Positions 3,319 to 37,291 of a DNA stretch of 64,000 nucleotides are shown one piece after another. Both the position numbers and the translations under genes were made by a program. The notes below the pieces were generated by a model. That model searched no databases and had not been told where the DNA came from. It saw only the letters and a program-made list of their open reading frames with translations. Origin of the DNA: a virus; IMG/VR virus record IMGVR_UViG_3300032006_002703, positions 32,001 to 96,000 of that record; one strand, written 5' to 3'. Positions within the stretch are counted from its first letter, which is position 1. Every line of letters starts with the position of its first letter.

Positions 3319-3329
3319 ATCTAATTACA

Positions 3330-6529: not shown

Positions 6530-7029
6530 TTTATATCCTTCCTTAATTCTGTGTTTCCGTAATTTATGAAAAGCTCTTTTCCTTCTTCTATTTCTTCACT
6601 AGCTGTATACCTAAAAAGCATTGAGTCATAATCAAACTCATACATTATATTTGGATTGTCTGAATGATTGTATACCATTCCAAGCCCCAAGACAAAGGCA
6701 TGAGAAAATAAAGATTCTAAATTTTCATACCCAAGATCCTTCAGGCTTTCCAATAGCTCCTCTTTTAAGTCTTCGTCGTCAACCAATTGATGGAGAAAAA
6801 GTTTTGAAGAAAGTTTTTCGTACTCTTCTTTCGTGTTTACGCAAAGACGCCCAAACATATACCTTCTCATTTCATTATCTTCCCCTCCTTTATCTTTTTC
6901 AGGGATAATAAAATGGCATTCCTCTACAATCTCACCTTCTTCGATTTTGCTTTTTGCAAAAACTCCCCTTCCCTTTATTGAAGATTTTCCTATTATTAAT
7001 TTTTTCGGAGACACTAAGTCGTATTTCAT
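6526..7029 (-). CDS. SET-domain protein-lysine methyltransferase
   Basis: SET motifs SSIKGRGVFA, YNHSDNPN, EIEEGKELFINYG. Start at 7029 overlaps the PHP gene stop (ATGA). Confidence 0.88.
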   Translation of the reverse strand: MKYDLVSPKKLIIGKSSIKGRGVFAKSKIEEGEIVEECHFIIPEKDKGGEDNEMRRYMFGRLCVNTKEEYEKLSSKLFLHQLVDDEDLKEELLESLKDLGYENLESLFSHAFVLGLGMVYNHSDNPNIMYEFDYDSMLFRYTASEEIEEGKELFINYGNTELRKDIN

Positions 7030-7847: not shown

Positions 7848-7876
7848 TTGACAGAATACTCCTACTATGGTAGTAT
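7848..7876 (+). promoter_or_regulatory. sigma70-type promoter TTGACA-N17-TAGTAT (extended -10 TG) for nrdA
   Basis: ttgacagaatactcctactatggtagtat; ATG at 7897. Confidence 0.65.
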
Positions 7877-7896
7877 TCTTTACTGAAATTATATCT

Positions 7897-10317
7897 ATGG
7901 ACATTAAAGTAAAAAAAAGAAATGGGCGCCTCGAGGGGTTTGCTGTAGAAAAGATTAACGCAAGCGCTGCGCGAGCAGTGGGAGAAGTTTCAGATGTCGC
8001 AGCCAGTGAAGTGGTTTTAGATGCGCAATTGCAACTTTTCGATAAAATAACCACAAAAGAGATAGACAAAGCATTAATACTATCCGCGCGTGAGAAGATA
8101 GAAAAGGAGCCAAATTATAATTTTGTCGCCGCAAGACTACTTCTTAATAATCTTTATAAAGAGGTTTTTAATGAGGGGGTGGACTCTGACGTGTTTGAGC
8201 TTCAGTATCGAAAGAGCTTTATTCAGAATGTTAAACGATTAGTTTCTGACGACAGGTTAGACCGAAGGCTTCTTGATTTTGATCTTCGTAAACTTTCGGA
8301 CGCATTGGATATCAAAAGAGATCGACTCTTTAAATATTTAGGGGTGCAGACTTTGTATGATCGTTATTTTATCAGAAAGGAAGGGAAAGTTATGGAGTCT
8401 CCTCAGGCTTTTTGGATGAGGGTTGCAATGGGCCTTGCGATTAACGAAGAAGACAAAACCTCTCGGGCAATAGAATTTTACGATTTAATGAGTCAACTTA
8501 GGTATACCCCTTCTACTCCTACGTTGTTTAACAGTGGGACCACCCATTCTCAATTAAGCTCATGTTATTTGAATACATTTGATGACAGTATTGATGGCAT
8601 TTTTGACGGAGCGTGGCAAGAGGCTCGTAAATCAAAGTACGCTGGAGGCCTTGGTCTGGACGTCACCCCTTTTCGTTCATCTGGCGCCCACATAAAGGGC
8701 ACAAACGGAACCTCTAGCGGTTTGGTTCCATGGTTGAAAATTTATAACGACCTCCTTATTGCGGTAAATCAAGGGGGCAAAAGACCAGGTGCGGGATGCG
8801 CTTATCTTGAGCCTTGGCATTTAGATTATGAGGATTTTCTAAACCTAAGACGGAACACTGGAGATGATAGATTAAGGTGTCACGATATGAATACCGCATC
8901 TTGGATTCCTGACGTTTTCATGAGGACCGTAAAGGAAGAGGGAGATTGGTATATGTTTGACCCCTCTGAATGCTCAGATCTTCATGATTTGTTTGGGGAA
9001 AAGTTCGATAGCCGATATCAATTTTACATCAAAGAAGCTCAGGAAGGGCGAATTAAAAGCTTTAAAAGCATTCCCGCTAAAGAACTATGGAAAAAGATGC
9101 TAAAGGTATTATTTGAGACTTCTCACCCCTGGAATACTTTCAAGGACGCTTGCAATATCAGGTATACAAATCAACACGAAGGAACTGTTAAGAGTTCTAA
9201 TTTATGTACTGAGATTACCCTCCATACAAAAGCTTCGGAATATCACCACGGACAAAAAGTTCAACACGGAGAAACTGCGGTTTGTAATTTGGGCTCAGTA
9301 AATCTTGTAAATCATACCCATAGTCGAGGAATTGATTATAAAAAATTGCGTAAAACCATTTTTACCGCAATGAGAATGCTTGATAATGTTGTCGATCTTA
9401 ATTTTTATCCTACAGAAGAAGCCAGAAGGTCTAATTCAAAGCATAGACCTGTTGGCTTAGGGATGATGGGTTTACATGATGTGCTCCATAAATTTGATAT
9501 TAATTTTGATAGCGATGAGGCGGTATCATTTAATGATAAGCTCTTTGAGGAGTATAGCTGCGCAGCAATCCACGCAAGTAGCAAGTTAGCCAAAGAGAGA
9601 GGGTCTTATCAAACCTTTGAGGGCTCTCTTTGGAGTAAAGATATTTTTCCTGTTGATAGTTACAATAGGCTAATGGAGTATAGGGGCAAGTCAACGATGC
9701 TTGGAAAAGAATCAATCGACTGGAGTTCCTGTAGGGAGTCTGTAAAAAAACATGGAATGAGAAACTCTAATGTTATGGCTATCGCTCCAACTGCTACAAT
9801 TGGATACATTAACGGAGTCGAGCAAAGTATTGAGCCAAATTTTTCTACTATATTTGTTTATGAAAATAAGAGCGGGAATTCCTATATCGTTAATGAGCAC
9901 TTTGTAAACGATATGAAAGCTAGAGGTCTTTGGAATACAGAAAATATTAATTTAATTAAAAGTGTGGATGGAGACTTGTCTCTTGTTAACGGAAGTATCC
10001 CTGAGGATATTAAAGAGAAATATAAAACCGCATTTGATAGAGATGTGTTTAAGTTAATTGAATGTAATGCTGTTCGACAAAAATGGATTGATCAGGCAAT
10101 AAGCTTTAATCTTTACAATAAGACTACTTCCATGAAATATTTAAATGATGTTTATATGGCTTGTTGGGAGGCTGGATTAAAGACTACCTATTATCTGCGC
10201 AATCGTGCCGCATCAAAGATAGAGAAATCTACTTCTAGTGACGAAAAAACAGAAGAGCTCTCTTCTTGCAGTATTGATGCCATGATGAACGGCGGTTCCT
10301 GCGAAAGTTGTCAGTGA
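7897..10317 (+). CDS. nrdA: class I ribonucleotide reductase alpha subunit with N-terminal ATP cone
   Basis: ATP cone VKKRNG; PSTPTLFNSG, SSCY, QGGKRPGA, SSNLCTEI, VCNLGS, RPVGLG, IAPTA, DQAIS, KTTYYLR; C-terminal CESCQ. Confidence 0.95.
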   Translation: MDIKVKKRNGRLEGFAVEKINASAARAVGEVSDVAASEVVLDAQLQLFDKITTKEIDKALILSAREKIEKEPNYNFVAARLLLNNLYKEVFNEGVDSDVFELQYRKSFIQNVKRLVSDDRLDRRLLDFDLRKLSDALDIKRDRLFKYLGVQTLYDRYFIRKEGKVMESPQAFWMRVAMGLAINEEDKTSRAIEFYDLMSQLRYTPSTPTLFNSGTTHSQLSSCYLNTFDDSIDGIFDGAWQEARKSKYAGGLGLDVTPFRSSGAHIKGTNGTSSGLVPWLKIYNDLLIAVNQGGKRPGAGCAYLEPWHLDYEDFLNLRRNTGDDRLRCHDMNTASWIPDVFMRTVKEEGDWYMFDPSECSDLHDLFGEKFDSRYQFYIKEAQEGRIKSFKSIPAKELWKKMLKVLFETSHPWNTFKDACNIRYTNQHEGTVKSSNLCTEITLHTKASEYHHGQKVQHGETAVCNLGSVNLVNHTHSRGIDYKKLRKTIFTAMRMLDNVVDLNFYPTEEARRSNSKHRPVGLGMMGLHDVLHKFDINFDSDEAVSFNDKLFEEYSCAAIHASSKLAKERGSYQTFEGSLWSKDIFPVDSYNRLMEYRGKSTMLGKESIDWSSCRESVKKHGMRNSNVMAIAPTATIGYINGVEQSIEPNFSTIFVYENKSGNSYIVNEHFVNDMKARGLWNTENINLIKSVDGDLSLVNGSIPEDIKEKYKTAFDRDVFKLIECNAVRQKWIDQAISFNLYNKTTSMKYLNDVYMACWEAGLKTTYYLRNRAASKIEKSTSSDEKTEELSSCSIDAMMNGGSCESCQ

Positions 10318-10324
10318 TTCTTGC

Positions 10325-10353
10325 TTGACTTTTTGCTTTTTTTTTGCTATTAT
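10325..10353 (+). promoter_or_regulatory. sigma70-type promoter TTGACT-N17-TATTAT, 7 nt before the nrdB ATG
   Basis: ttgactttttgctttttttttgctattataataggcATG. Confidence 0.7.
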
Positions 10354-10360
10354 AATAGGC

Positions 10361-11374
10361 ATGGATAATAAATCAGGAGAATTACTGTCGGAAGACATCG
10401 CGGGCGTAAATAGAATACTTCCACACAAACATAAATTTGCGTGGGATTTATTTTTGAAAAGTTGCGCCAATAACTGGATGCCAACCGAAATATCAATGCA
10501 AGACGATATTAATCAATGGAAAAATAATGAAATCACAGATGATGAAAAACTCCTCGTCAAGAGGTGCCTCGGCTTTTTTGCAGGAAGCGAGTCTTTGGTT
10601 GGCAATAACCTTTTGCTTTCTGCTTTCAGATTTATTACGGATGCTGAATGTCGTCAGTACATTTTGCGCCAAGCTTTTGAAGAAAGCCTTCATAACCTTA
10701 CCGTTGTATATATCTGCGACAGTTTGGACTTGGATGTCGAAGAGGTGTTTAACGCCTACGAAACTATACCTAGCATCAAAGCTAAGGACGATTTCCTCAT
10801 GGAAATTACCACGGATATTAGCAGGGAAGACTTTAAGCCAACCTCAAAGGAGGGCAAACAGGAAATTCTAAGAAATCTTCTTACATACTATATTGTATGT
10901 GAAGGTACTTTTTTCTTTAGCGGTTTTGCAATGCTTCTCGCTCTGGGTAGGCAGAATAAACTGCAAGGAGTTTCCGATCAAATCAAATATACCCTTAGAG
11001 ATGAAAGTAGTCATATTGCTTTTGGCACTTATTTGATTAATACTCTTATTGAACAGAACCCATCTATTTGGACTAAGTCCATTCAGTCTGAGTTTGTTGA
11101 GCATATTAAAAAAGCGGTTGATTTAGAAATTGCGTATGCTAAGGATGTTTTACCTACTGGTATTTTGGGTCTTAATGCTGATATGTTTATTGATTATATG
11201 CATTACATTGGTAATCGTAGGCTTGAGGCTATTGGCTTAGATTATCGTTTCCCTAGCGACAAAAACCCTTTTCCTTGGCTTGGTGAAGTCGTAGACGTAC
11301 AAGCTATGGGGAACTTCTTTGAGAGGCGAGTAAGGGAATATCAGCAAGGTGGGGCTCTTGAGGAAGATTTTTAA
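10361..11374 (+). CDS. nrdB: ribonucleotide reductase beta subunit, class Ic (R2c)-like
   Basis: Ferritin-like ligands FFAGSES, EESLH, EGTFFFSGF, RDESSH; C-terminal NFFERRVREYQ. The radical Tyr position is Val and the first ligand is Glu. Confidence 0.93.
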   Translation: MDNKSGELLSEDIAGVNRILPHKHKFAWDLFLKSCANNWMPTEISMQDDINQWKNNEITDDEKLLVKRCLGFFAGSESLVGNNLLLSAFRFITDAECRQYILRQAFEESLHNLTVVYICDSLDLDVEEVFNAYETIPSIKAKDDFLMEITTDISREDFKPTSKEGKQEILRNLLTYYIVCEGTFFFSGFAMLLALGRQNKLQGVSDQIKYTLRDESSHIAFGTYLINTLIEQNPSIWTKSIQSEFVEHIKKAVDLEIAYAKDVLPTGILGLNADMFIDYMHYIGNRRLEAIGLDYRFPSDKNPFPWLGEVVDVQAMGNFFERRVREYQQGGALEEDF

Positions 11375-13329: not shown

Positions 13330-13645
13330 GTCTTGTAATCTTTGAGACCTTAAAGCCTGCGTTCTCTACGGCCTTATGTATCTCTTTGTCTGTTAAGGTT
13401 TTTCCTTTAATTAAATAAATATGAGCCGTTTCTTTTTTTATATCGAACGCGACCTTGTATACTTTTTTTGTTTTATTTAAATGCTTCTTGATTCCTATTG
13501 CACAAGATGGGCATACAAGTCCCTTTATTTTTGCATCTATAATTTCAGCGGAGCTAGAATTTAAAATAAGCAGGGAGCAGGCTGCGAGCATTAGCGTTTT
13601 ATTTACGCCCCTGTATTTCCTTTGTCTAATTCCCATAGATACCAA
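13322..13645 (-). CDS. exported heavy-metal-associated (HMA) domain protein
   Basis: Signal-like N-terminus, IKGLVCPSCA metal motif, C-terminal AVENAGF. Confidence 0.82.
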   Translation of the reverse strand: MVSMGIRQRKYRGVNKTLMLAACSLLILNSSSAEIIDAKIKGLVCPSCAIGIKKHLNKTKKVYKVAFDIKKETAHIYLIKGKTLTDKEIHKAVENAGFKVSKITRHE

Positions 13646-13667
13646 TAATAATCATCCAGCGGATCCA

Positions 13668-14204
13668 TTATTCCCTTCTGTCTTTAGTTTGGACGCGGTT
13701 TCTAACCTCTCTCGCAAGCTCCTTTTTTGCCGCTTTGATTTGCTCGTGTCTTTCTTTTTGAGATTCTTTAAACGATTTAATTAAATCTGCAACCTCTTCT
13801 TTGTTTTTATTTTTTAAATTTTCTTGCAAAACTTTTCTTGCAAGATGGAGCTCATTCTGCAAAAGTTTCATTGCGTTTACTTTTATTTTAATCTCTTCAA
13901 TAGGCTCGGGGCGAGGTCGAGGTTTTCTTCCTTCTTTGTCTGCTTTTATGTTTTCTGCAATCCATTTCGCTAAAGTGCTACTGCCCATTCCAAAACCTCC
14001 TGGTAAGGGTCTGTAGTCTCTTACTTGTAATGCTGGAGGTTTTCCCCAATGTGGAGGAAATGGCTTCCGCTTATTTTCGGATAATTTGGGTTTAACTTTT
14101 TCTATTTCTTTTGTTTGGGGCGGGTTTGGTTTTGACCTTTCTTTTTCGCCGAAAGAAAATCCTGCGACCAGCAGGGTAATTATAATTAAATTTATTGTTT
14201 TCAT
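13668..14204 (-). CDS. secreted hypothetical protein with C-terminal coiled coil
   Basis: Signal peptide MKTINLIIITLLVAG; GTGTA-N10-ATG places the start at 14204. Confidence 0.6.
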   Translation of the reverse strand: MKTINLIIITLLVAGFSFGEKERSKPNPPQTKEIEKVKPKLSENKRKPFPPHWGKPPALQVRDYRPLPGGFGMGSSTLAKWIAENIKADKEGRKPRPRPEPIEEIKIKVNAMKLLQNELHLARKVLQENLKNKNKEEVADLIKSFKESQKERHEQIKAAKKELAREVRNRVQTKDRRE

Positions 14205-14235
14205 TAAATAATGATACACAAATTAACAAATAAAG

Positions 14236-15519
14236 TCAAGTGGTTAGTTCTTTTAAAACTCTGCCTTGATTTAATATTGGATGTGGCCTTCCGCTGTGAT
14301 CGTAATATTGATGTTTTGGATTAACTCCCATATGGTCATATATCGTCGTTAAAACATCTGGAGGGGTTATGCCTGTTACAGGTTCCGACCCAGTCTTATC
14401 GCTTTCTCCTGCGACCCTGCCCCCTTTTACTTTTCCGCCTGCTATTGCTGCCGCCATTGACCTGGACCAATGGTCGCGACCTCCATTGGCGTTAATTTTT
14501 GGGGTGCGGCCAAATTCTCCCCACGCCACAACCATAACATCATCCATCATTCCTCTTGAATGAAGGTCAATAATTAGTGCGCTAAATGCCTTGTCAAATT
14601 GAGGTAAATTTCTCTCTCCCATGCTTTTGTCGCTAGCCTGATGGGTGTCCCATCCAAATGGAGTTTTTACGGTCACCATTTTTACGCCACCTTCTACTAG
14701 CCTTCTGGCTAAAAGAAGATCTCTGCCAAAACCTTCTCCGTATAACTCTTTTGTGAATGTTGATTCTTTTTCAATATCGAATGCATTTGCGGCTTTGCCG
14801 CTGGTTAGCAATCCTTGAGCCTTACTGTTAAATTCATCTATCGAATCTACCATTCCAGATTTGTCTAGTATACTTCTAAAGCTATCAAATTCTTTTAATA
14901 GATTCTTTCTATTGTCAACAATGTCCACAGTTAAAGATTGATCTAAAGTAAAATTTGTATCTCTATACGGAATAGTGCTAGAGGGCCTGGTCTTTGTTTC
15001 ATAGGGTCCAAACTCATGCGGTAAATATCCAGGTCTAGTGCCGTTGTTATGATTGGGCACTACGACATATGGCGGAACTTCTGCCCCTTTTGAAGCGTGC
15101 TCTGATATTGTAGAACCTATACTTGGATAGAAATTCTGTTGTTGATTGGGGACGGGGGCCTTATATCCAGAATGCATAATCTCGTGCGCAGAACTATGAT
15201 TATTATTGTCGTGATAAAGGCCTTTTATGATTGACCATTTATCCATGCAGTCTGCGCATTTGGCTAAATGTTCGGGCAATTGAATTCCGTCTACCGTGGT
15301 GGGTATAGCCTCAAAATGCCCTTTGAACGGTTGAGGGGCGTAAGGTTTTGGATCAAAGGTTTCATGATGTGAAGGACCTCCGTTCATCCAGACTACTATA
15401 ACTGATTTATTTTTATGTAGACCCGTGCGTTTTTGAGAAGCAAGTAATTGAGGTAATGTCAAATTGTTGGCCCCGAGCATTGCCCCGCTTACTATAAAAG
15501 ATCTGCGAGATAATTTCAT
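14236..15519 (-). CDS. DUF1501 family protein (Tat-exported, sulfatase/alkaline-phosphatase-like fold)
   Basis: Twin-arginine signal SRRSFI; WMNGGPSHHETFDPKP, YPSIGS, LLARRLVEGGV, GWDTH, WGEFGRTPKIN..GRDHW. Confidence 0.88.
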   Translation of the reverse strand: MKLSRRSFIVSGAMLGANNLTLPQLLASQKRTGLHKNKSVIVVWMNGGPSHHETFDPKPYAPQPFKGHFEAIPTTVDGIQLPEHLAKCADCMDKWSIIKGLYHDNNNHSSAHEIMHSGYKAPVPNQQQNFYPSIGSTISEHASKGAEVPPYVVVPNHNNGTRPGYLPHEFGPYETKTRPSSTIPYRDTNFTLDQSLTVDIVDNRKNLLKEFDSFRSILDKSGMVDSIDEFNSKAQGLLTSGKAANAFDIEKESTFTKELYGEGFGRDLLLARRLVEGGVKMVTVKTPFGWDTHQASDKSMGERNLPQFDKAFSALIIDLHSRGMMDDVMVVAWGEFGRTPKINANGGRDHWSRSMAAAIAGGKVKGGRVAGESDKTGSEPVTGITPPDVLTTIYDHMGVNPKHQYYDHSGRPHPILNQGRVLKELTT

Positions 15520-16438: not shown

Positions 16439-16697
16439 TTTTAACGCCTGTATTTTTTAGCAATTGTGCGCCCATTCTTATTTTAGTTGTACTATTCAAT
16501 TCCCAAAATCCTACTTTAGGTAAATATTTATCCATGTATTCACAAAGCTCCTTTCGACTCATGTCTTGAAGCTCTTGATCTATTGGGAGTCCCAAAATAT
16601 TATCTTTTTCTTTGTTTGGATATTCTCTAAATTTTTCAACAAAAATATAGAGAGTGCCAACCGAATAGAGTAACCATTTTATTATTAATTGAAACAT
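16419..16697 (-). CDS. hypothetical protein with N-terminal TM segment
   Basis: 92-aa ORF tightly packed in the operon. Confidence 0.5.
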   Translation of the reverse strand: MFQLIIKWLLYSVGTLYIFVEKFREYPNKEKDNILGLPIDQELQDMSRKELCEYMDKYLPKVGFWELNSTTKIRMGAQLLKNTGVKNVKAKQ

Positions 16698-16698
16698 A

Positions 16699-17046
16699 TC
16701 ATCCTTTCTTTATTTTTCTTTTGGCCTTAACGTAAGGCTTCATTAGGTAATGTTTGATGAATCCTCCAATCATTTGCTTTCCTAGTCTTTTTCTTATTTT
16801 ATTTTCATACCTCGTCATTGGGCAATCAATAACCCTGGAGAATGTAATGACTCCTATAAAAGTACAAAGCGGCAAGCATACATACCACGGTGGATTTTGT
16901 GAGGGAGAAAATCCATTATATACTAAAATAAAGAACGCTCCAAAATTACCAAAAACAACTAACCAATGGAGTACTACTACAAGCATCAATTTCAGGCTGT
17001 CTGTTTCTGGCAGAAACCCAAAACGGCGGTTTTTGTTCATCAACAT
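16699..17046 (-). CDS. small membrane protein, DUF2784-like
   Basis: Two TM helices, CPMTRYENKIR and GGFIKHYL motifs; GTGTA-N9-ATG. Confidence 0.6.
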   Translation of the reverse strand: MLMNKNRRFGFLPETDSLKLMLVVVLHWLVVFGNFGAFFILVYNGFSPSQNPPWYVCLPLCTFIGVITFSRVIDCPMTRYENKIRKRLGKQMIGGFIKHYLMKPYVKAKRKIKKG

Positions 17047-17054
17047 GTATTGTA

Positions 17055-18872
17055 TTACACAATACTCTCTAAAAATTCATGTTCCCCATTTAGGATTTCT
17101 TTTGCTAGCGCATAGTTTTTCTTGTCGTTATTTTTTGATATCGCTTTAAATTTTTCCTCTATTTTTATTTTTGAATTTTTAAATACGCAATCCGCTAGCT
17201 TTCTTGCTTCTTTTGTGTTAATCGATTGAGCTCTCGACGAAGAGGCGGCGATAACAAATAATTCTGCACCGATTTCTGCCAGTCTCCCAAGAAGTAGCTG
17301 CTGTTTATCTAGTGCGGGTCCGTATCTTACCATTGAATGAAAAAGCTTTCTCGCAAGCTTTTTGCTAGTTTTTGAAACATACTTTAATTGACCTTTTAAG
17401 GCGGGATCCATACCATTTGGTATTCTATGAGAAAAAGGGAGCCACTGCTTTGGGTACCATTTTGCATAAAACCATGCCGCTTTAATTGCTGCGACCATTC
17501 TTGTTTTCATTGGCAGTCTACTGTCTAAAACTGCACCTGCTGCCTTGAGGTGGGGATCTAATGCTTCTCTTGCAAGGATGAGTCGCATTATTTCGCTTGA
17601 CCCTTCAAAAATAAGGTTAATTCTTAAATCTCTAAACATTCTCTCTACTGCAGGGTTAAGTTGCCCTCTGTTTTTTAAAGACTGCGCGGTTTCGTAGCCT
17701 CTTCCGCCTCTAATTTGCATTGTTTCGTCGATCATTTTCCAGGCGGTTTCTGTTCCCCACATTTTTGCTATAGCAGATTCAACTCTAATATCGTGATTTT
17801 TATTGTCTGCCATTTGTGCGGTTAATAGTACCATGGATTCCATAGCAAACGTATTTGCAGCAAGGTGAGCTAACTTATCTGCAATTGCGGAATGTTTTCC
17901 TATTACACAGCCCCACTGTGATCTGGTAGACGTCCACTGTCTGCAAACCTTAAGCATCCATTTTGTTGCGCCAACACATATGGCGGGGAGGGTCAATCTT
18001 CCAATATTTAAAGTTCCCAAGGCAACTTTCATCCCCCTCCCTTCTCCTAGTATAATATTTTCTTTAGGGACGTAAACTTCATCAAATTTTACAACTCCAT
18101 TGTATAACGCCTTAAGCCCCATGAACCTGCATCGATTAACTATACTTACTCCTGGCATATCCATGTCTACAATAAAAGCTGTAATTTGCTTTTTTCCATT
18201 TTTGTCTGGGGTTCTAGCCATTACTATGATGTGTTCCGCTTTTAATCCATTGGTGCACCAAAGCTTTTCTCCATTTAATACAAAATGACTTTTGTCTTCT
18301 GAGAGCTTTGCTTCTGTGATCATTTTGGAGGGGTCAGAACCTACTCCATCTTCCGTTAAAGCAAAAGCGCTTACCGCACCATTGCTGAATTTTGGTAAAT
18401 ATTTTTCTTTTTGCTCTTCTGTTCCGTACATCAAAAGGGGTTGGGGCACGCCTATTGATTGATGCGCGGACAGTAGGGCAGATATATTTCCGCACTCCGA
18501 GCCGCAGACCATTGCAGCCTTTGAGTAATTTGTTTGAGATAAACCTCTTCCTCCGTATTCTTTTGGGATCTTGATTGCAAAGGCTCCAATTTTTGCCAGC
18601 TCTTTAAATACCTCATCGGGAATTTCCCCATTTTCATCTATGGCGTCAGGGTCTACGTATTCGGTAAAAACATTTTTTAAATCCGAAGTGAAGTCTTCTC
18701 CCATTTTTGATTGGTGTTCGTTTTGCTGGGGAAATGGAAATATATCGTTAAAGTTTATATTTCCACTATATAATCCACCTGCAAACGTTTTATTTAAATC
18801 CTCTCTCCCTGCTTCCGCAGCCTCAAGTGCGGCAGCTTTATCTTTCGACATTTTTGATGTATCTATTGACAT
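17055..18872 (-). CDS. fadE: acyl-CoA dehydrogenase (long, VLCAD/ACAD9-like)
   Basis: AHQSIG, FALTEDGVGSD, NGEKLWCTNG, LNIGRL, GGRGY, RDLRINLIFEGSSEI (catalytic Glu), plus a C-terminal extension. Confidence 0.92.
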   Translation of the reverse strand: MSIDTSKMSKDKAAALEAAEAGREDLNKTFAGGLYSGNINFNDIFPFPQQNEHQSKMGEDFTSDLKNVFTEYVDPDAIDENGEIPDEVFKELAKIGAFAIKIPKEYGGRGLSQTNYSKAAMVCGSECGNISALLSAHQSIGVPQPLLMYGTEEQKEKYLPKFSNGAVSAFALTEDGVGSDPSKMITEAKLSEDKSHFVLNGEKLWCTNGLKAEHIIVMARTPDKNGKKQITAFIVDMDMPGVSIVNRCRFMGLKALYNGVVKFDEVYVPKENIILGEGRGMKVALGTLNIGRLTLPAICVGATKWMLKVCRQWTSTRSQWGCVIGKHSAIADKLAHLAANTFAMESMVLLTAQMADNKNHDIRVESAIAKMWGTETAWKMIDETMQIRGGRGYETAQSLKNRGQLNPAVERMFRDLRINLIFEGSSEIMRLILAREALDPHLKAAGAVLDSRLPMKTRMVAAIKAAWFYAKWYPKQWLPFSHRIPNGMDPALKGQLKYVSKTSKKLARKLFHSMVRYGPALDKQQLLLGRLAEIGAELFVIAASSSRAQSINTKEARKLADCVFKNSKIKIEEKFKAISKNNDKKNYALAKEILNGEHEFLESIV

Positions 18873-18873
18873 A

Positions 18874-20850
18874 TTAGTGTGGTCCTGAAAATTTACTATA
18901 CTCTATGGGGCCACCCTTAAAGGGTGCCCAACCTGTTCCCATGATCATTGCAAAATCGATATCGTCTGTAGTTTTTGCAACCTTTTCTTGTATGCATTTC
19001 TGCGCTTCTTGAGTCATTGACTCTACCATCTTGCTTTCTATGTCGCACAATATGGGGTTGTCTTTTTGCATTTTTAAAAATACTGGGTTTGGACAGACAG
19101 CTTCCCTCCCTTTATACAGGAAGAATCCTTTTCCGCTTTTTCTTCCAAATTGTTTTGTTTCTAGGATTTTATGAATTATTTGAGGGACCTTAAAATCATC
19201 TAGCCTTTTTTCTAAATCAAGCGCTACATGAGCTGCAACATCGAGACCTATTTCATCAAGCAGTCTTAGCGGACCCATAGGCATGCCAAAATCTAACATA
19301 CAGTTCTCTATGGAGGTTAGCGGGTGCCCGTCCGAAAATAATCTTAAAGCTTCAACAAGATAGGGTAATAGGATTCTGTTAACCAAAAAGCCTGGACTAT
19401 CCTTAACCACTACTGGAAGCTTTCCTATTGAGATTACAAATCTTTTTGCTCTATCTTCTGTCTCTGCGCTAGTTTTCTCTCCAACAACAATCTCAACCAA
19501 TTTCATCTTATGTACGGGATTAAAAAAATGAATTCCCACAAAGTTTTCTGGTCTTTTAAGTCCTTTTGCAAGTTCGGTTATTGACAGCGCAGAAGTGTTT
19601 GTCGCGAGAATTGCATCTTCTGCTAGCCCGCTCTCTATTTCCTGCAGGACCTTTGTTTTTAATTCGAAATTTTCTACAACAGCCTCTATCGCTAGACTTT
19701 GCTTACTAAGGGGTACAGAGTTTTTTGTGAAGTTCAGTTTTCCCAAACAATCTCTAACTGTGGGCCTATCTATTTTATGCTTAAGTACCGCAGAAACAAA
19801 AAGTTTGCCTATTTTTTTGAGACCAGATGCTATTGCGCTCTCAGAAACATCCTTTAATAAAACTCTTTTTCCTCTAGAGGATATCCATTGGGCAATCCCT
19901 GCGCCCATTGTTCCTGCGCCAATAACGACAATATCATCATCTATTTGTTTATCAAGTTTCGGGTCATACCATGGCATTCCATGGGGAAGCTTTTTCGCTC
20001 TTTCTTGCAGAAAGAATACTCTTATTAAATTTCTACAAGCCTTAGTTTTTGCGAGAGAAAGGAACCCTTTCTTTTCTAGCTTGAGTGCTGCGTACTTATT
20101 TTTAAAAAAACTTTTTGCCACAACTTCAATTATTTTATTGGGTGCAGGGTAGTTTCCTCTAGTCTTTTTATAAACACTTTTCTTTGATAGAAAAATTGAA
20201 ATCGGCAATAGTATGGCTTGTGTTAATTTATTGACTTTTCTTTTTGGTTTTTTGGAACCACACAAGCTAACGGCCTCTTTAAAAAGATTTTCCTTGTGGC
20301 ACATCTTATCCACCATTCCTAATTTAAGCGCTTGAATTGGGGCATAGATTTTACCAGAAAGCAATGCCTGTAGGGATTTTGGTAAACCAATTATTCTTGG
20401 CAACCTAGTTGTTCCTCCCCATGCGGGTAATATCCCAAGCATAACCTCTGGGAGCCCTAGTTTTGTGCATTTTTCATTGGATGCAATTCTGTATTTACAT
20501 GCAAGAGACAATTCTAATCCCCCACCGAGGCAGGCGCCATTGATTGCGGCCACGGTAGGTATACTTAACCTTTCTATTCTATTAAAACTCTCTTGTCCGT
20601 AGCGCAAAACTCCACGAAGCCACTTTTCGTTTGTTAAATTATCTTTCATGGATAGAAGATCCGCTCCTGCAAGATAAATCGAGGGTTTCTTGCTGACGAA
20701 AATAAGACCTTTAATATCTTTATTTCCTTCGACCTCCTCCAGGATTTCATTCAATCTAATAAAAAAATCCATATTTAAGATATTTGCTTTAGAGTTTGGT
20801 TGATCAAACTCTGCTACTGCAATTCCGTCTGTTATATTAAAATTAATCAT
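18874..20850 (-). CDS. fadJ: multifunctional enoyl-CoA hydratase / 3-hydroxyacyl-CoA dehydrogenase (FadB/FadJ family)
   Basis: Crotonase motifs AGADL, GACLGGGLEL, GLPEVMLGILPAWGGT; HAD motifs GAGTMGAGIA, EAVVE, ATNTS, GIHFFNPVHKMKLVE, PGFLVNR, PMGP. Confidence 0.93.
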   Translation of the reverse strand: MINFNITDGIAVAEFDQPNSKANILNMDFFIRLNEILEEVEGNKDIKGLIFVSKKPSIYLAGADLLSMKDNLTNEKWLRGVLRYGQESFNRIERLSIPTVAAINGACLGGGLELSLACKYRIASNEKCTKLGLPEVMLGILPAWGGTTRLPRIIGLPKSLQALLSGKIYAPIQALKLGMVDKMCHKENLFKEAVSLCGSKKPKRKVNKLTQAILLPISIFLSKKSVYKKTRGNYPAPNKIIEVVAKSFFKNKYAALKLEKKGFLSLAKTKACRNLIRVFFLQERAKKLPHGMPWYDPKLDKQIDDDIVVIGAGTMGAGIAQWISSRGKRVLLKDVSESAIASGLKKIGKLFVSAVLKHKIDRPTVRDCLGKLNFTKNSVPLSKQSLAIEAVVENFELKTKVLQEIESGLAEDAILATNTSALSITELAKGLKRPENFVGIHFFNPVHKMKLVEIVVGEKTSAETEDRAKRFVISIGKLPVVVKDSPGFLVNRILLPYLVEALRLFSDGHPLTSIENCMLDFGMPMGPLRLLDEIGLDVAAHVALDLEKRLDDFKVPQIIHKILETKQFGRKSGKGFFLYKGREAVCPNPVFLKMQKDNPILCDIESKMVESMTQEAQKCIQEKVAKTTDDIDFAMIMGTGWAPFKGGPIEYSKFSGPH

Positions 20851-22103
20851 TCGCACGTCTCAATTTCTATAGCGGACCCCTGGCCTCCGCCAACACAGAG
20901 CGAGGCGAGTCCTTTTTTTAGACCCCTTCTTTTTAACTCTTTAGCTAAAGTAAGAATGATTCTTGCTCCAGAAGCTCCAACAGGATGTCCTAGCGCTATC
21001 GCTCCTCCATTAACGTTAAATTTCTCATCTGGAATTTCGCCAATATCGTTTTCGATTACTTTCTTGCATGCAAGTGTCTGTGCGGCAAACGCTTCATTTA
21101 TTTCTATCAAATCCATGTCTTTAAGGTTGACTCCAAGTTTCTTGATTGCAAACACTGGGCCAAGGCCCATTCTTTTTGGGTCGCAGCCAACATGAGTGTA
21201 ATTGTTTATTTTTGCAATAGGTTTTTTTCCTGTTTTATTTAATCCTTCTTCAGTCATTAACAGCAAGGCAACTGCTCCGTCTGTTACTTGAGAAGAATTA
21301 CCTGCGGTTACCGTTCCTTCTCTTTTGTCAAAAATAGCGCGAAGCCTGTTGAGTTTTTCTGTCGTCGTATCTTCCCTGATTCCATTGTCTTTAGTGATAA
21401 CTTCGCCGCTGGGAGAGTTAATGCAATCATCGTTTGAAATGTATATTGGTGATATTTCATCCGCTTGAATAAGACTGGTTGCCATGGAGGCTTTCCCGTG
21501 AGAAAGAAAGGAAAAAATGTCCTGCTCTTTTCTGCTGATTTCATATTCTCTCGCTAAAATTTCTGCAGTCTGCCCCATATTAATTCCAGACAGGGGATCG
21601 TGCAGGCCCATGCGTAAACTAATTTTTGGAGCTAAATCACTTAATCTAAATTTTAAGATTGCTTTTAATTTCTCTTTTTTTGTTTTTGCCCCGAAGAGAG
21701 AAAATATCTTTTTAGACGTTGATCTTGAAAAAAGCAGGGGCATTTGAGACATGCTTTCCGTTCCTCCTGCAAGGAATATATGGCCTTCATTAGCCTTTGC
21801 TTTTGCCGAGGCACACGTTACTGCTTCGAATCCAGAGGCGCAATTTCTATGAACGGTTACTGCTGGTATATTTTTGGGCAAACCAAGTCTTGTTCCAATA
21901 ATCCTAGAAACATTCATTTCGTCAGCGGGCTGCCCAACGCAACCGAATATAACTTCATCTATCAAACCTAGGTCTATGTCTACTTCAGATAGGACTCCTT
22001 TACTCGCTGCAATCCCTAATGCAGACGCAGATTCCTCTGCAAGAGAGGTTCCCATCTTGCAAAACGGGGTTCTTTTTCCCTCTACAATATATAAGTCAGA
22101 CAT
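20847..22103 (-). CDS. fadI: 3-ketoacyl-CoA thiolase (FadA/FadI family)
   Basis: RTPF, RNCASG (catalytic Cys), GGTESMS, TAGNSSQVTDGA, NEAFA, GGAIALGHPVGASG, LCVGGGQG. Confidence 0.93.
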   Translation of the reverse strand: MSDLYIVEGKRTPFCKMGTSLAEESASALGIAASKGVLSEVDIDLGLIDEVIFGCVGQPADEMNVSRIIGTRLGLPKNIPAVTVHRNCASGFEAVTCASAKAKANEGHIFLAGGTESMSQMPLLFSRSTSKKIFSLFGAKTKKEKLKAILKFRLSDLAPKISLRMGLHDPLSGINMGQTAEILAREYEISRKEQDIFSFLSHGKASMATSLIQADEISPIYISNDDCINSPSGEVITKDNGIREDTTTEKLNRLRAIFDKREGTVTAGNSSQVTDGAVALLLMTEEGLNKTGKKPIAKINNYTHVGCDPKRMGLGPVFAIKKLGVNLKDMDLIEINEAFAAQTLACKKVIENDIGEIPDEKFNVNGGAIALGHPVGASGARIILTLAKELKRRGLKKGLASLCVGGGQGSAIEIETCE

Positions 22104-22137
22104 CGGCACAGTATATAGTAAATAATCTGTGAGAAAA

Positions 22138-22542
22138 TTACATTTTCCTTAGCATTAATATTGTTTTTCTTAGGTCTGGGTCTATAGGTTCTGGCAATTT
22201 ATCTATCGAAAAATAATCCCAGTCGTTATGCTCGTAGCCATCTGGAGCACAGACTAGGTTGGGCCTGATTCTTTTAGCGATAGGATAAAGATAGCAAAAG
22301 AAATGTCTATTGTTTGTTATGCGAAATTTATTAACGAAGGTTAGTGCGTATCTAGTTTTAATGAGAGTTTCTTCATACAGTTCTCTTTCTGCAGCCTTCC
22401 AGATCGGCTCTCCAGTTTCTACCATTCCGCATGGGACGCTCCAGTAGCCTTCTAGTTCTGTCCCCTTTATGCATCTTTTAAGCAATAAAACATCATTCTT
22501 GCATTTTAACAAAACTCCTGCGACCTTAAGAGAGGAAGTCAT
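22138..22542 (-). CDS. NUDIX hydrolase
   Basis: Nudix box GMVETGEPIWKAAERELYEET. Confidence 0.85.
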   Translation of the reverse strand: MTSSLKVAGVLLKCKNDVLLLKRCIKGTELEGYWSVPCGMVETGEPIWKAAERELYEETLIKTRYALTFVNKFRITNNRHFFCYLYPIAKRIRPNLVCAPDGYEHNDWDYFSIDKLPEPIDPDLRKTILMLRKM

Positions 22543-23605
22543 CTATGATCTCCTTGTTCTCCCAATGCGGACATCCGTCATATTGCATTATTTTAACTCT
22601 TTCTCCTTTTTTCTCCTTGGGACAAAGTGAGCCCCTGTCTTCGTAGAACGCAGTTTTAATTATGTTTTCATCTTTATCTAATAGGGCCACGTATTTCATA
22701 GGTTTTCTAAAAGGACATATATAATTTTTTATTTTTTTTCCTTTTGCATCAAGAAGGAACTCTCCTTTTCTTTTCTTGTATCCCTCCCTTCCGCAGGCCA
22801 GTGGTCCTCCGAAGCTTCCATCGCTTGGGTAATCTTTTTTAGCTGCATACGAGGCCGTTGCGTTTTTGTAAGAGTAATTTTCTAAATATTTTTGTACTGC
22901 TGTCAATTCATGCTCAAAGCCTTCCAGCTCTTCTTCGCTTATTGATGGCATTTGAATTATTCCTTTGCCTGTTTTTCCTAACAAATCAACTGATAGATCA
23001 AACTTAAGAAACACAAACTCACTGCTACTTTTGTATTCTGGGTATAAATGCTTAACCGCCAAAGAGTACATTAAATCCTGTAGGTTATCTGTTAGGTCTT
23101 TTCCTTTAAAGGTTTGCTTGCTTGATTTGAAATCTCTAATGTTTGCAGTGCCATCTTTGTACAAAAAAAGCTGGTCAATGAAACCTCTTATAGAATATTT
23201 TAACGAACCTTTATTTATGTCTATATTGAATTCTTTTTCTATAAATCTCTTTTTAAGATCTTTATTTTCGTCTCCATAAAAATCATAGCCCAGGCCGTTG
23301 ACAATCATTCTGTTCATGTCCTCCATGTTTTCGTCGTCAATAACGGAAAGTCTTTTTGCGTGGGATTCGATTAACTCTTTAATTTCTGGAACGCACCATA
23401 CATTTCTTTCTTTTAATATTTTATTAAATTGCCTTTTTTTTCCTTTTTGAGCCAGTGTTTCAAAAACTAAATGGCAGATCCAGCCTTTGCTTGCCCCCTC
23501 GTTTGTTGTGTCTGGAAGTTTTAAGATGTACTTGCACCAATATGTCCACGAGCATTGCTGCGCGGTTTTTATTCTGCTCGCGGACAATTTGACAGGCTTA
23601 TTCAT
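22526..23605 (-). CDS. PD-(D/E)XK RecB/Cas4-like exonuclease
   Basis: LSASRI...C; GFIDQL...RDFKS; QDLMY; C-terminal cysteines. Confidence 0.82.
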   Translation of the reverse strand: MNKPVKLSASRIKTAQQCSWTYWCKYILKLPDTTNEGASKGWICHLVFETLAQKGKKRQFNKILKERNVWCVPEIKELIESHAKRLSVIDDENMEDMNRMIVNGLGYDFYGDENKDLKKRFIEKEFNIDINKGSLKYSIRGFIDQLFLYKDGTANIRDFKSSKQTFKGKDLTDNLQDLMYSLAVKHLYPEYKSSSEFVFLKFDLSVDLLGKTGKGIIQMPSISEEELEGFEHELTAVQKYLENYSYKNATASYAAKKDYPSDGSFGGPLACGREGYKKRKGEFLLDAKGKKIKNYICPFRKPMKYVALLDKDENIIKTAFYEDRGSLCPKEKKGERVKIMQYDGCPHWENKEIIDDFLS

Positions 23606-24647
23606 TTATTAAGTCAAGAAGTATCTTTTTGTTTTTTAGCAACTGTTTTGATAACTCTTTATTCTCTTGCATTTCTTTAATTATTTCTAGAATAAATCTC
23701 CTCTGCTCTATTTCTTTAATTTCTGTTTTTTTATTTTCCCATTTAAGGAAGTCCTTCTCGTCCATATCTCCGAAGTCATTTTTTACTGGTAGACAGAGCA
23801 TTATTTTTTCTGGCGGAAAATGAGATAAGAGCTTTAAATAATTTTTAACGGAAGCTTTAAGGCCTCTATTTTCTTCCTTGCCTAAATCGTTATTGAATGC
23901 AATTATTATTTTTTTTGGACATAAGGATATTAGCGCACAAATTAATTTTGGTGAGATACTAAGACCGAAAGATACTAATGTGTTTTTATGGCCAAATTCT
24001 TGACACTTTAGTAAATCCCCTATGCTTTCCACTAGGATCACTTCATCCTTCTTTAAAATGCACTCCCTGGTCTCGCTATCTGTATACAGTGGATATATCC
24101 AGCTACTTTTTCTTCCAACATGTTTCCACTTTGGTCTCATAGAATTTTGGAGCATATCTCTTCCTGAAAACCCGTGGATTTGTTTATGTTCGTTATATAT
24201 AGGGAATACGAATCTCTGATTTAGTTGTCCCGAGGTCGCTCTCCCTCCTTTAAGATTCTTAAGTATCTTGCTTGAGATTCCTTTATCATTATAGAATTTA
24301 TAATGTGGAAGTAGTCTTTCTAGGCAGGATTCGTCATGAATTTCTTCTAGTTCGATTTTTTGTGGAGCGCATCTTTTACTATAAAGTTCGTCGATTTTAT
24401 TATTTTTAAAATATTTATTAATTTCTTTCGGGTCATTAGTTCCCAAGGTTGCTTGAATTAACCTTTTAAGCGGTGAGAATCGAGTGCCCTTAACGTAATC
24501 TTTCCACACTCCTGTATCTTTGTAGATTTGTATGGCTGTTGTATTGTCTCCATTTCTGAATATCGCATTCGTTTGCCAATAGGCGCCCCTGTCCGAGAGT
24601 TTGTATCCCAGGTCCTCTAGCACCTCCTTAATTTGTTCGCTATCCAT
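23598..24647 (-). CDS. DNA primase (divergent DnaG-like Toprim)
   Basis: RFVFPI...GFSGR, ILVESIGD, AFNND, KNDFGD. Directly downstream of dnaB. Confidence 0.82.
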   Translation of the reverse strand: MDSEQIKEVLEDLGYKLSDRGAYWQTNAIFRNGDNTTAIQIYKDTGVWKDYVKGTRFSPLKRLIQATLGTNDPKEINKYFKNNKIDELYSKRCAPQKIELEEIHDESCLERLLPHYKFYNDKGISSKILKNLKGGRATSGQLNQRFVFPIYNEHKQIHGFSGRDMLQNSMRPKWKHVGRKSSWIYPLYTDSETRECILKKDEVILVESIGDLLKCQEFGHKNTLVSFGLSISPKLICALISLCPKKIIIAFNNDLGKEENRGLKASVKNYLKLLSHFPPEKIMLCLPVKNDFGDMDEKDFLKWENKKTEIKEIEQRRFILEIIKEMQENKELSKQLLKNKKILLDLINE

Positions 24648-24650
24648 AAT

Positions 24651-26174
24651 TTAAAGAGTCGGGACTGTGTTCTCTCGGTCGCCCCCGTCATCAATTAAAG
24701 CTACATCTTCTAGGATCATATGGTCAACCATATCTCTTAGGTCGCCCTTTTCCGTTATTCCAAAGTTTTCTATCTCAAGGTTGATATAATTTTGTTTAGT
24801 GCTTCCGTCTGCTAATTCTACAGGCTGCAATGCTCTATAAACATCTGGACCTAAGTGCCTATGTTTAAAACAAATTAATTTATGGGTGCCAAAGCCTGCA
24901 GGCTCTGAATCTAGTTCGTCAAGCGTTTTCTTTCTTAGGCTAAATAGATGAGAACTAAATTGAGTAATTCTGTCAGAAAGAGAAACGATACTTTCATCGT
25001 CCACAATTGAATCTGAATTTCTATTCGTGGTTATTCCGTACCTATTACTTTGAACACTGGTAATCATTGATATCATAGGATCTCCTTCGAAACATATTTC
25101 CTTTTGAACCAGGGCCTTAAACTTGTCTACCATTTCTCCGACCACCTGCCACTCGTTCTTATTTGAGAATTTCTCTGAGGTTGTCTTGATATAATCAAAA
25201 CTAAAAATCATCTTGTTTCCTCTTCCTACTTTTGCATAATAAAACCTTTTTATAATATTTAACATTGCGTCCACCGAAAGCCCTGCTACGTTATAGTAAT
25301 AGAATTTTAGACTTTTTACCTTAGGCCAAACTGCCCTAACCTTATTGATTACCTCATCCCCAGCTTGTCTCCATTTTCCTGTTTCAAGTAAATGAAGGGG
25401 AACCCCAGAAAGCGCCGCGCACTGACGCATAGTCAGCTCTTCTTTACTCATTTCTCCGTTATCAAAGTGGAGAACTGGAAGGTTTTCTTGAGAGCCTGAA
25501 ACTTTAATCGAAAAATCCATACAAAAATTTGTTTTCCCGACTCCAGATCTTGCAACAATTACTGTTATATTTCCTGGCCTAAGGAGGGATCCGTAAAGAT
25601 CGTTAATTCTAGAGTGAGGTCCTTCTGGGCCAAAGTCTTCTATGGGATTATTTCCCCTCTCTTCGATCATTTGCTCCATCTCTTCGAATATGTTTTCTGG
25701 AGAATCGGAGCCTTCTTGGTAGGTGTTTATTTGCTCGTTGTAAATTGTATCCGCGCTATTAATTATCTCATCATAAGAGGTTGAGTCTGGTAGTGACCTC
25801 ATTTTTTTTGCGACATTAACTGATGCGTCATAAATGCCCCTTCTTACCGAAACTTTTTTTAACTCTTTAGCTGTTTTTATGACAGAGTTTTCTGATATTT
25901 TGCGCATAGACAGAGCTTTAATGTAGTCTCCTATATTTAGGTTATCCTCAAATGATATCCCCAATGAGCTAACCCTTTGGGCTAATATAACCTCATCAAG
26001 AATCTCTCCCGACTCCAAGGCCTGCTTCAGGACGCAGAATATAGTTTTATTTACTAACGAATTTTCATCGTAGAAGTCCTGCTCAGAGATGAATGGGGCA
26101 ACCTCAACATATAAATTAGGATACTTCATCAAACCTGCGAGCAAATGCTGTTCGTAATCTAGTGAATGGATCAT
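24651..26174 (-). CDS. dnaB: replicative DNA helicase (DnaB family)
   Basis: DnaB N-terminal domain (EQHLLAGL...DFY); Walker A ARSGVGKT; GEMSKEE; FDYI; VQSNR; KHRH. Start at 26174 follows a consensus promoter. Confidence 0.88.
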   Translation of the reverse strand: MIHSLDYEQHLLAGLMKYPNLYVEVAPFISEQDFYDENSLVNKTIFCVLKQALESGEILDEVILAQRVSSLGISFEDNLNIGDYIKALSMRKISENSVIKTAKELKKVSVRRGIYDASVNVAKKMRSLPDSTSYDEIINSADTIYNEQINTYQEGSDSPENIFEEMEQMIEERGNNPIEDFGPEGPHSRINDLYGSLLRPGNITVIVARSGVGKTNFCMDFSIKVSGSQENLPVLHFDNGEMSKEELTMRQCAALSGVPLHLLETGKWRQAGDEVINKVRAVWPKVKSLKFYYYNVAGLSVDAMLNIIKRFYYAKVGRGNKMIFSFDYIKTTSEKFSNKNEWQVVGEMVDKFKALVQKEICFEGDPMISMITSVQSNRYGITTNRNSDSIVDDESIVSLSDRITQFSSHLFSLRKKTLDELDSEPAGFGTHKLICFKHRHLGPDVYRALQPVELADGSTKQNYINLEIENFGITEKGDLRDMVDHMILEDVALIDDGGDRENTVPTL

Positions 26175-26182
26175 ATTGCTAT

Positions 26183-26211
26183 AGTATAGCAAACAATCCA
26201 ACGAATGTCAA
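26183..26211 (-). promoter_or_regulatory. sigma70-type promoter TTGACA-N17-TATACT, 8 nt before the dnaB ATG
   Basis: Minus strand reads ttgacattcgttggattgtttgctatactatagcaatATG. Confidence 0.72.
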
Positions 26212-37186: not shown

Positions 37187-37291
37187 CTTGATCAGAATGT
37201 ACACTGTTATTTAAAAGGAAAGAATAAAACTCTGCCTATTAAAAAGTCTCCAAAGTAACTTTTAACTTTTCATGTAACTTTAATAAAGTTT

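Follow-up and report, generated by a model that had tools for sequence, protein, structure and literature searches.

Can a bacteriophage encode the core of fatty-acid β-oxidation, and, if so, where did these genes come from and what could they do during infection? This question is raised by three tightly coupled genes in a 64,000-nucleotide stretch of viral DNA (hereafter, the window; positions 32,001 to 96,000 of the 107-kb IMG/VR record IMGVR_UViG_3300032006_002703). A sequence-only reading had proposed that they specify a thiolase, a FadJ-type multifunctional enzyme, and an acyl-CoA dehydrogenase (ACAD), which together carry out all four β-oxidation steps. Our analysis confirms this observation. 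The three genes are read from the minus strand, with a stop/start overlap between the first two and a single-nucleotide gap between the last two, and they lie directly downstream of phage replication genes on the same strand (Table 1).

Table 1. Coordinates of the triad and of the neighboring features discussed in the text (window numbering).
Feature	Position	Strand	Length	Assignment
Ribonucleotide reductase (RNR)	7867..11374	+		Class I, large and small subunits
DUF2784 protein	16699..17046	-		Small membrane protein, 8 nt downstream of the ACAD gene; Pfam DUF2784, E 2e-9
ACAD	17055..18872	-	605 aa	Long-form acyl-CoA dehydrogenase, VLCAD/ACAD9 type; first oxidation step
Gap between FadJ-like and ACAD genes	18873		1 nt
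FadJ-like enzyme	18874..20856	-	660 aa from GTG; 658 aa from ATG at 20850 (likely start)	FadJ/FadB-type enoyl-CoA hydratase plus 3-hydroxyacyl-CoA dehydrogenase
Thiolase/FadJ-like overlap	20847-20850			ATGA stop/start overlap
Thiolase	20847..22109	-	420 aa from GTG at 22109; 418 aa from ATG at 22103	Acetyl-CoA C-acyltransferase; thiolytic cleavage step
Nudix	22138-22542	-		Replication-module gene
Nuclease	22526-23605	-		PD-(D/E)XK nuclease
Primase	23598-24647	-		Primase
DnaB	24651-26201	-		DnaB helicase
Promoter	26211-26183			Near-consensus sigma-70-like; 11 of 12 matches, extended -10 TG

We first asked whether the three proteins are what they appear to be. Pfam searches assigned Acyl-CoA_dh_N, _M and _1 (E 4e-22, 4e-21 and 3e-34) and the additional C-terminal ACAD9/ACADV_C domain (PF21343; 34.6 bits, cut-off 27.8) to the ACAD; ECH_1 (3e-32), 3HCDH_N (3e-55) and 3HCDH (2.5e-24) to the FadJ-like enzyme; and Thiolase_N (2e-61) and Thiolase_C (1e-43) to the thiolase. 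Alignment with solved enzymes shows that the catalytic residues are intact in all three. The thiolase retains Cys90, Asn338, His375, and Cys405 (against PDB 4e1l and 4c2j). The FadJ-like enzyme, whose best solved relative is E. coli FadJ (PDB 8bnu/6ysv, E 7e-119), retains the hydratase glutamates Glu115 and Glu137 and, in its dehydrogenase domain, the Rossmann motif GAGTMG at 313-318, Ser422, His443, Glu455, and Asn493. The ACAD, whose best solved relatives are human ACAD9 (8phe, E 5e-85) and VLCAD (3b96, 2uxw), retains Glu423 within IFEGSSE, which aligns with the IFEG glutamate of ACAD9. None of the proteins, however, reaches an NCBIfam equivalog cut-off for FadI, FadJ, or FadE. The thiolase passes TIGR01930 (407.6 bits, cut-off 240.55) but falls below the FadI (310 against 560) and FadA cut-offs; the FadJ-like enzyme, a family-level relative rather than an equivalog, scores 542.8 against 869 for FadJ (NF008363) and 516.8 against 870 for FadB (NF008727), and is about 50 residues shorter than the E. 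coli α subunit; the ACAD scores 272 against 600 and 108 against 1300 with the FadE models. The substrate range is therefore uncertain.

Is the DNA truly that of a phage? The contig, for which CheckV estimates a completeness of 76%, carries a large terminase (phrog_2, E 7.6e-26). PHROGs and NCBIfam gave nothing for the ORFs after the terminase, but structure prediction and fold search resolved the 402-aa one as a predicted HK97-fold capsid protein (pLDDT 77.9; Foldseek probability 1.00 to many phage capsids), whereas the 538-aa ORF remains only a presumed portal. The terminase and capsid protein identify a tailed phage, whose genome is roughly 140 kb. Contigs assembled separately from public marine runs of two other studies bridge both junctions of the block (16955-18568, 16456-17207, 21816-22820 and 21664-22667), with continuous cover across them; several low-support joints in Logan contigs, with sides of 20-29 letters, were set aside as graph artefacts or other strains. 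In addition, phage-conserved ORFs lie downstream of the triad, and the GC content of the three genes (0.38-0.42) matches that of the contig (0.394).

The sequence-only reading knew of no such operon in a bacteriophage, and indeed no genuine GenBank phage was found to hold it, the hits to FadJ and the ACAD being mislabelled bacterial contigs or distant short-chain enzymes. We also found no cultured phage or paper with this operon. It is, however, not unique to this phage, as at least three other uncultured phage or phage-like groups carry the same clade of genes. In single-protein scans of IMG/VR, the thiolase found nothing and FadJ only the cut end of a related phage contig (G001), and an alignment-based scan was needed. 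G001, a close relative, shares 32 of 107 ORFs with this phage, including ACAD-DUF2784-o92-o198 in the same order, and its ACAD is 80% identical. A second group (group B; IMG/VR records 3300022920_000504, 3300046168_000085 and others) comprises T4-like marine phages with larger genomes and lower GC. The terminase of this phage has no match in these records, which are fragments of an unrelated lineage, and their viral nature was shown instead by Gp23 capsid, tail sheath, and UvsX. They share only 7-8 ORFs with this phage, and their triad (ACAD 64-65%, thiolase about 50%, FadJ about 47% identical) is accompanied by RNR, DUF2784, a trypsin-like protease, an Ldh_2 dehydrogenase, and L-serine dehydratase. 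A third group (group C), from marine metagenomes, carries the triad together with several genes shared with this phage; its members are likely phages, although no proven virion gene was found in the loci examined.

The sequence-only reading had suggested trees against PVC homologues, and the nearest cellular homologues are indeed from PVC bacteria. In separate trees for the ACAD, the thiolase, and FadJ, the phage copies form one clade (SH-aLRT about 98) nested within Verrucomicrobiota and sister to Opitutales, albeit with partial cellular sampling (the best 80 of more than 600 hits, plus 401 genomes drawn from the order Opitutales). The same order and strand of the three genes occur in dozens of MAG and isolate loci, with identities of 52-62% for the ACAD, about 50% for the thiolase, and 38-47% for FadJ. 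There, the triad is the 3′ end of a five-gene operon in which a patatin lipase and an AMP-binding acyl ligase directly precede the thiolase, as seen in four of the cellular loci (L015, L018, L031, and L045). Neither upstream gene was detected in the phage contig or in any phage locus examined (PF00501 search and tblastn). The phage genes have a GC content that tracks each phage genome (0.35-0.44), while the cellular loci have a median of 0.589. They are also under purifying selection, with dN/dS of 0.07-0.16 within group B and, for the window against G001, an ACAD pN of 0.119 and pS of 0.772.

Based on the above data, we propose, with reasonable confidence, that the block is a phage auxiliary metabolic operon. 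An ancestor in the phage gene pool captured the thiolase-FadJ-ACAD part of an Opitutales-type lipid-catabolism operon, and the three genes have since been kept, adapted in composition, and passed among unrelated marine phage lineages. In the present phage, the triad sits at the end of the DnaB-primase-nuclease-Nudix module and is probably transcribed with it; no strong minus-strand terminator was found before position 17055. The pathway cannot run without host parts: consistent with the sequence-only reading, which saw no acyl-CoA synthetase or ETF in the window, no match to PF00501 or PF01012 was found in the whole 107-kb contig, with positive controls, and no lipase or fatty-acid transporter either, although about a quarter of the genome may be missing. 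During infection, the lipase, ligase, and ETF/ETF-QO of the host, inferred to be of Opitutales type from gene phylogeny only, would provide long-chain acyl-CoA and accept electrons. The phage ACAD would make enoyl-CoA, the FadJ-like enzyme would hydrate and oxidize it, and the thiolase would release acetyl-CoA, so that membrane or storage lipid is converted into NADH, reduced flavin, and acetyl-CoA for phage replication. This role, already suggested by the sequence-only reading, remains an inference in the absence of expression, protein, or activity data. The degradative direction is favored by the ACAD itself, since VLCAD-type enzymes are catabolic and ETF-linked.

An alternative, which we consider unlikely but which survives best, is that the enzymes are functional but selected for something other than bulk energy gain, such as supplying acetyl-CoA for the many sugar-modification enzymes of the phage, clearing acyl-CoA or free fatty acids released during membrane remodelling, or degrading a specific pool such as storage-polymer-derived 3-hydroxyacyl-CoA. 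The contig does carry many glycosyltransferase, epimerase, and sulfotransferase genes, and the neighbors of the triad in group B (L-serine dehydratase, Ldh_2) and group C (aldehyde dehydrogenase, GlmS, and a GDPD phosphodiesterase) point to broader carbon rerouting. However, a long-chain VLCAD-type ACAD with a full FadJ-thiolase set is the standard energy-yielding spiral, its source operon starts with a phospholipase and a ligase, which fits bulk lipid catabolism, and nothing links the triad specifically to the sugar genes. It is very unlikely that the triad is a neutral, decaying or unexpressed passenger. The missing ligase and ETF could be read in this way, but all frames and catalytic residues are intact, purifying selection is strong while synonymous sites are saturated, and the triad is kept in at least three deeply diverged phage groups with composition fully adapted to each genome. 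Operation in the synthetic direction, to make 3-hydroxyacyl-CoA or a storage polymer precursor, is equally doubtful: the closest solved thiolases by sequence include biosynthetic acetoacetyl-CoA thiolases and the top NCBIfam hit is named acetyl-CoA C-acetyltransferase, but an ETF-linked VLCAD/ACAD9-type ACAD would not be expected to drive enoyl-CoA reduction, the source operon is headed by a lipase and a ligase, and the thiolase is translationally coupled to a FadJ-type subunit, as in degradative trifunctional complexes. Finally, a misassembled or contaminating bacterial fragment, or a cellular or prophage-flank contig, can be all but dismissed on the junction, composition, and tree evidence given above, even though the record is linear without terminal repeats, we found no direct terminal repeat, and one group B record is flagged as a provirus.

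Phage auxiliary metabolic genes are known for photosynthesis, the pentose phosphate pathway, and nucleotide, sulfur, and phosphate metabolism. For lipid catabolism, the published evidence that we could find is more limited. Energy generation by fatty-acid oxidation during marine phage infection was proposed from virome-level reports of fadB and fadL (Hurwitz et al. 2013, PMC4053976), which rest on read and protein-cluster counts, without an assembled phage genome, a full operon, or linkage to an ACAD or thiolase. Giant viruses of eukaryotes, for example Prymnesium kappa virus RF01, encode acyl-CoA dehydrogenase and related lipid enzymes, read as reprogramming of host energy metabolism, but according to a 2022 review neither enoyl-CoA hydratase nor β-ketothiolase had been found in any of them (PMC9270025), whereas this phage has both. 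Here, the whole core spiral is linked on assembled phage genomes, and, if it is active, infected marine Verrucomicrobiota would oxidize their own lipid to pay for phage replication.

It is worth noting that no CoA-type motif was seen before the Nudix box in the translation of the upstream Nudix gene, so that we make no claim for it as a CoA pyrophosphatase. More tentatively, the triad may belong to a cassette of single origin, with DUF2784 and usually RNR nearby, that circulates among unrelated marine phage lineages, namely this HK97-type phage, the T4-like large phages, and the third marine group. In such a scenario, which is possible but not favored, fatty-acid oxidation would be a general, long-maintained phage strategy against Opitutales-type Verrucomicrobiota, in which the phage copy takes over the core spiral while the lipase and ligase of the host feed it membrane lipid, and DUF2784 would be a phage-specific membrane partner of the pathway. 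RNR is one of the few gene sets shared with the group B phages, where it lies next to the triad (56-60% identity with G002-G005). The DUF2784 gene lies close to the triad in all phage groups examined but is absent from the 8-kb flanks of 80 cellular loci, and in two Opitutales genomes it sits far from the ACAD operon.

The contig, of which bases 32001-96000 are considered here, is a single sequence of 107,410 bp with a GC content of 39.4% and no terminal repeat. Its beta-oxidation genes, and the other features discussed below, are listed in the table. Pfam assigns every expected domain with strong scores, including the extra ACAD9/ACADV_C domain that marks long-chain, VLCAD-type dehydrogenases. 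Alignments to solved enzymes show that the catalytic sets are intact: Cys90, Asn338, His375 and Cys405 in the thiolase; Glu115 and Glu137 in the hydratase, and the Rossmann motif, Ser422, His443, Glu455 and Asn493 in the dehydrogenase domain, both by comparison with E. coli FadJ; and Glu423, within IFEGSSE, in the acyl-CoA dehydrogenase (ACAD), by comparison with human ACAD9. The thiolase scores above the NCBIfam TIGR01930 subfamily cut-off, but none of the three proteins reaches a FadI, FadJ, FadB or FadE equivalog cut-off; they are clear family members of uncertain fine specificity. The observation made in the sequence-only reading, namely three adjacent and tightly coupled genes with apparently intact catalytic residues, is confirmed in every detail.

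Coordinates of the features discussed in the text
Sequence	Coordinates	Strand	Feature	Details
Window	20847-22109	minus	Thiolase	420 aa from GTG, or 418 aa from the ATG at 22103
Window	18874-20856	minus	Enoyl-CoA hydratase fused to 3-hydroxyacyl-CoA dehydrogenase (FadJ-like)	Likely start is the ATG at 20850, inside an ATGA overlap with the thiolase stop
Window	17055-18872	minus	Acyl-CoA dehydrogenase	605 aa; one base after the previous stop
Window	16699-17046		DUF2784 small membrane protein	
Window	16955-18568; 16456-17207		Individual contigs bridging the ACAD/DUF2784 junction	
Window	21816-22820; 21664-22667		Individual contigs bridging the thiolase/Nudix junction	
Window	28345-28317	minus	Sigma-70-like promoter before the RecA gene run	12 of 12 matches; extended -10 TG
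Window	26211-26183	minus	Sigma-70-like promoter before the DnaB gene run	11 of 12 matches; extended -10 TG
Window	796-5906		ClpB/ClpC-like double AAA+ ATPase next to a Pol III alpha-type polymerase	840 aa and 858 aa; 51% and 69% in G001
Window	14236-15519 and 11371-13329		DUF1501 protein and protein with bacterial TSP3 repeats	DUF1501 E 1.4e-89; TSP3 protein 652 aa; G001 homologues 32% (weak) and 56%
Window	32935-37204		Sulfotransferase (PF03567) and DUF2827 protein	In a run of same-strand genes before the structural block
Whole contig (L001), outside the window	7192-7372		Two adjacent tRNA-Ser genes	Anticodons GCT and GGA
L108 (IMG/VR 3300022920_000504, group B)	13223-14575 and 6623-7753		L-serine dehydratase (PF03313/PF03315) and malate/L-lactate dehydrogenase family enzyme (Ldh_2)	
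L107 (group B)	11758-12912		DUF444 protein	
L119 and L116 (marine metagenome contigs, group C)	L119:1655-6677 and L116:6725-7420		GlmS-like, saccharopine-dehydrogenase-like, aldehyde dehydrogenase and glyoxalase genes; short match to glycerophosphodiester phosphodiesterase (GDPD)	
GenBank MT835486.1	53809-56730		FadJ-like match next to a short ACAD	Unannotated 'Bacteriophage sp.' contig from human faeces
GenBank MW495066.1	104425-105465		Annotated acdA	274-kb Microcystis phage MaAM05

The contig is an IMG/VR virus record with a CheckV completeness estimate of 76%, and outside the window it encodes a large terminase (phrog_2, E 7.6e-26). The 402-aa ORF located three genes downstream gave no family hit but has 273 representative relatives, and an AlphaFold model built on 37 of them (pLDDT 77.9) matches HK97-fold capsid proteins of many phages with a Foldseek probability of 1.00. 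The triad is flanked upstream by Nudix, PD-(D/E)XK nuclease, primase, DnaB and RecA genes and downstream by DUF2784 and small ORFs, with Pol III alpha, the ClpB-like ATPase and RNR lying further on. Most large ORFs of the structural region have no family at all.

Two lines of evidence argue against an assembly artefact. First, a second IMG/VR contig (G001, 47,968 bp) shares 32 of 107 ORFs with this one (terminase 70%, capsid 67%, Pol III 69%, RNR 76-87%); it begins inside the FadJ gene and continues with the ACAD (80% identical), DUF2784 and the next two small ORFs in the same order. Second, public marine, marine-plankton and estuary metagenome runs from six studies contain parts of the stretch. 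Four runs from two studies other than the probable source were aligned to 12-28 kb, with all 30 depth bins covered in one run and 29 of 30 in two others, and individual contigs bridge both junctions of the block.

An alignment-based scan of IMG/VR identified four contigs (group B) in which thiolase, FadJ and ACAD occur in the same order (ACAD 64-65% identical), with RNR, DUF2784 and a trypsin-like protease nearby. One of them, 57.6 kb long, encodes a Gp23-type capsid protein (E 8e-82), a tail sheath, UvsX and a 5'-3' exonuclease; it is a T4-like myovirus unrelated to the present phage, and only 7-8 ORFs are shared. In the T4-like phages, the ACAD is followed directly by an L-serine dehydratase, while Ldh_2 lies upstream and a DUF444 protein further upstream, which together looks like a larger central-carbon cassette. 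A metagenome scan revealed a third, marine set (group C) comprising thiolase, FadJ, ACAD, DUF2784 and a homologue of the 198-aa ORF downstream, plus several other genes shared with this phage and a ClpP-type protease. GlmS-like, saccharopine-dehydrogenase-like, aldehyde dehydrogenase and glyoxalase genes lie upstream of this triad; some members have insertions between FadJ and the ACAD, and in one contig the short GDPD match sits in such an insertion of 3.5 kb. The viral nature of group C is likely but not proven.

It is worth noting that DUF2784 lies close to the triad in all three phage groups but not next to the cellular operon, whereas two Opitutales genomes encode it elsewhere on the chromosome; it may be a functional partner, or only reflect shared ancestry of the block. 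GenBank phage records contain no true counterpart of the operon, the hits being mislabelled bacterial contigs, a short-chain ACAD in Microcystis phage MaAM05 (32% identity) and an unannotated gut contig; the matches in MT835486.1 and MW495066.1 are only about 32-34% identical to the window proteins. Among public proteins, two homologues of the ACAD (P0010 and P0119) are named 'DNA polymerase II', which is a misannotation, and one is binned as Candidatus Woesebacteria; the Woesebacteria contig (ACAD 73% identical) is probably a phage contig binned into a CPR genome.

In one-per-species bacterial genomes, the best matches to the ACAD are almost all Verrucomicrobiota, and in dozens of loci the thiolase, FadJ-like and ACAD genes lie in the same order on the same strand. 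The best cellular identity there is 62%, and some hits lie on megabase contigs. We built three ACAD trees, one with FastTree (211 rows) and two with IQ-TREE (86 and 98 rows). In all of them, groups A (this phage, G001 and eleven metagenome proteins at 69-89% identity), A2, B and C form one clade with no cellular row inside; SH-aLRT support is 98 in the 86-row IQ-TREE tree, and the clade is nested among Opitutales rows. Separate thiolase and FadJ trees give the same picture with support of about 98-99. The simplest reading is one capture of the block from an Opitutales-like genome, followed by long residence and exchange within the phage gene pool. Composition agrees, since the genes have the GC of their own phage genome (0.35-0.44) while the cellular loci have a median of 0.589. 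Selection agrees as well: within group B, dN/dS is 0.07-0.16 for all three genes, and between this phage and G001 the ACAD has a pN of 0.119 with synonymous sites saturated.

The cellular versions were examined at four loci next to the phage clade. A patatin-like phospholipase and an AMP-binding ligase, fused in one genome, sit directly upstream of the thiolase with overlapping stops and starts, in a five-gene operon. Neither gene has any match in this contig, estimated to be 76% complete, or in any phage locus examined, and no ETF is present. The phages therefore carry only the four-reaction core and must rely on the host for lipid release, activation and electron transfer, which is the main caveat to the description of the spiral as complete in the sequence-only reading.

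Based on the above data, we favour a role in providing extra beta-oxidation capacity, which would turn host acyl-CoA into NADH, reduced flavin and acetyl-CoA while the phage replicates. A VLCAD-type, ETF-linked dehydrogenase and a FadJ-thiolase pair are catabolic machinery, and their source operon begins with a phospholipase. The triad ends a same-strand run that starts at DnaB, a near-consensus sigma-70-like promoter sits just upstream of DnaB, and there is no convincing terminator before the ACAD stop. Expression with the replication genes by host RNA polymerase is plausible, although this is only inferred from a consensus scan. The alternatives, which we rank below this proposal, are a different metabolic purpose and, far less likely, neutral cargo, assembly error or operation in the synthetic direction.

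The nearest precedents in the literature searched are virome read counts for fadB and fadL, for which the same energy hypothesis was put forward (PMC4053976), and giant-virus lipid genes, a 2022 review stating that neither enoyl-CoA hydratase nor beta-ketothiolase had been found in any giant virus (PMC9270025); no paper describing this operon on an assembled phage genome was found there. This is a real, intact, phage-borne beta-oxidation core operon that is recurrent in marine phages and represents a new pathway within the known category of auxiliary metabolic genes, although its function in infection is still to be shown. The present case contributes an HK97-type lineage of about 140 kb, three-gene evidence for a single phage clade beside Opitutales, the identification of the five-gene source operon, and junction support from contigs of other studies.

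Other features of the genome deserve mention. The promoter preceding the DnaB run overlaps the listed TTG start of DnaB, so the true start is probably further downstream. The DUF1501 and TSP3-repeat proteins lie inside the phage genome, and the double AAA+ ATPase and its neighbouring polymerase are both conserved in G001. Lastly, the two tRNA-Ser genes are the only tRNAs on the contig.
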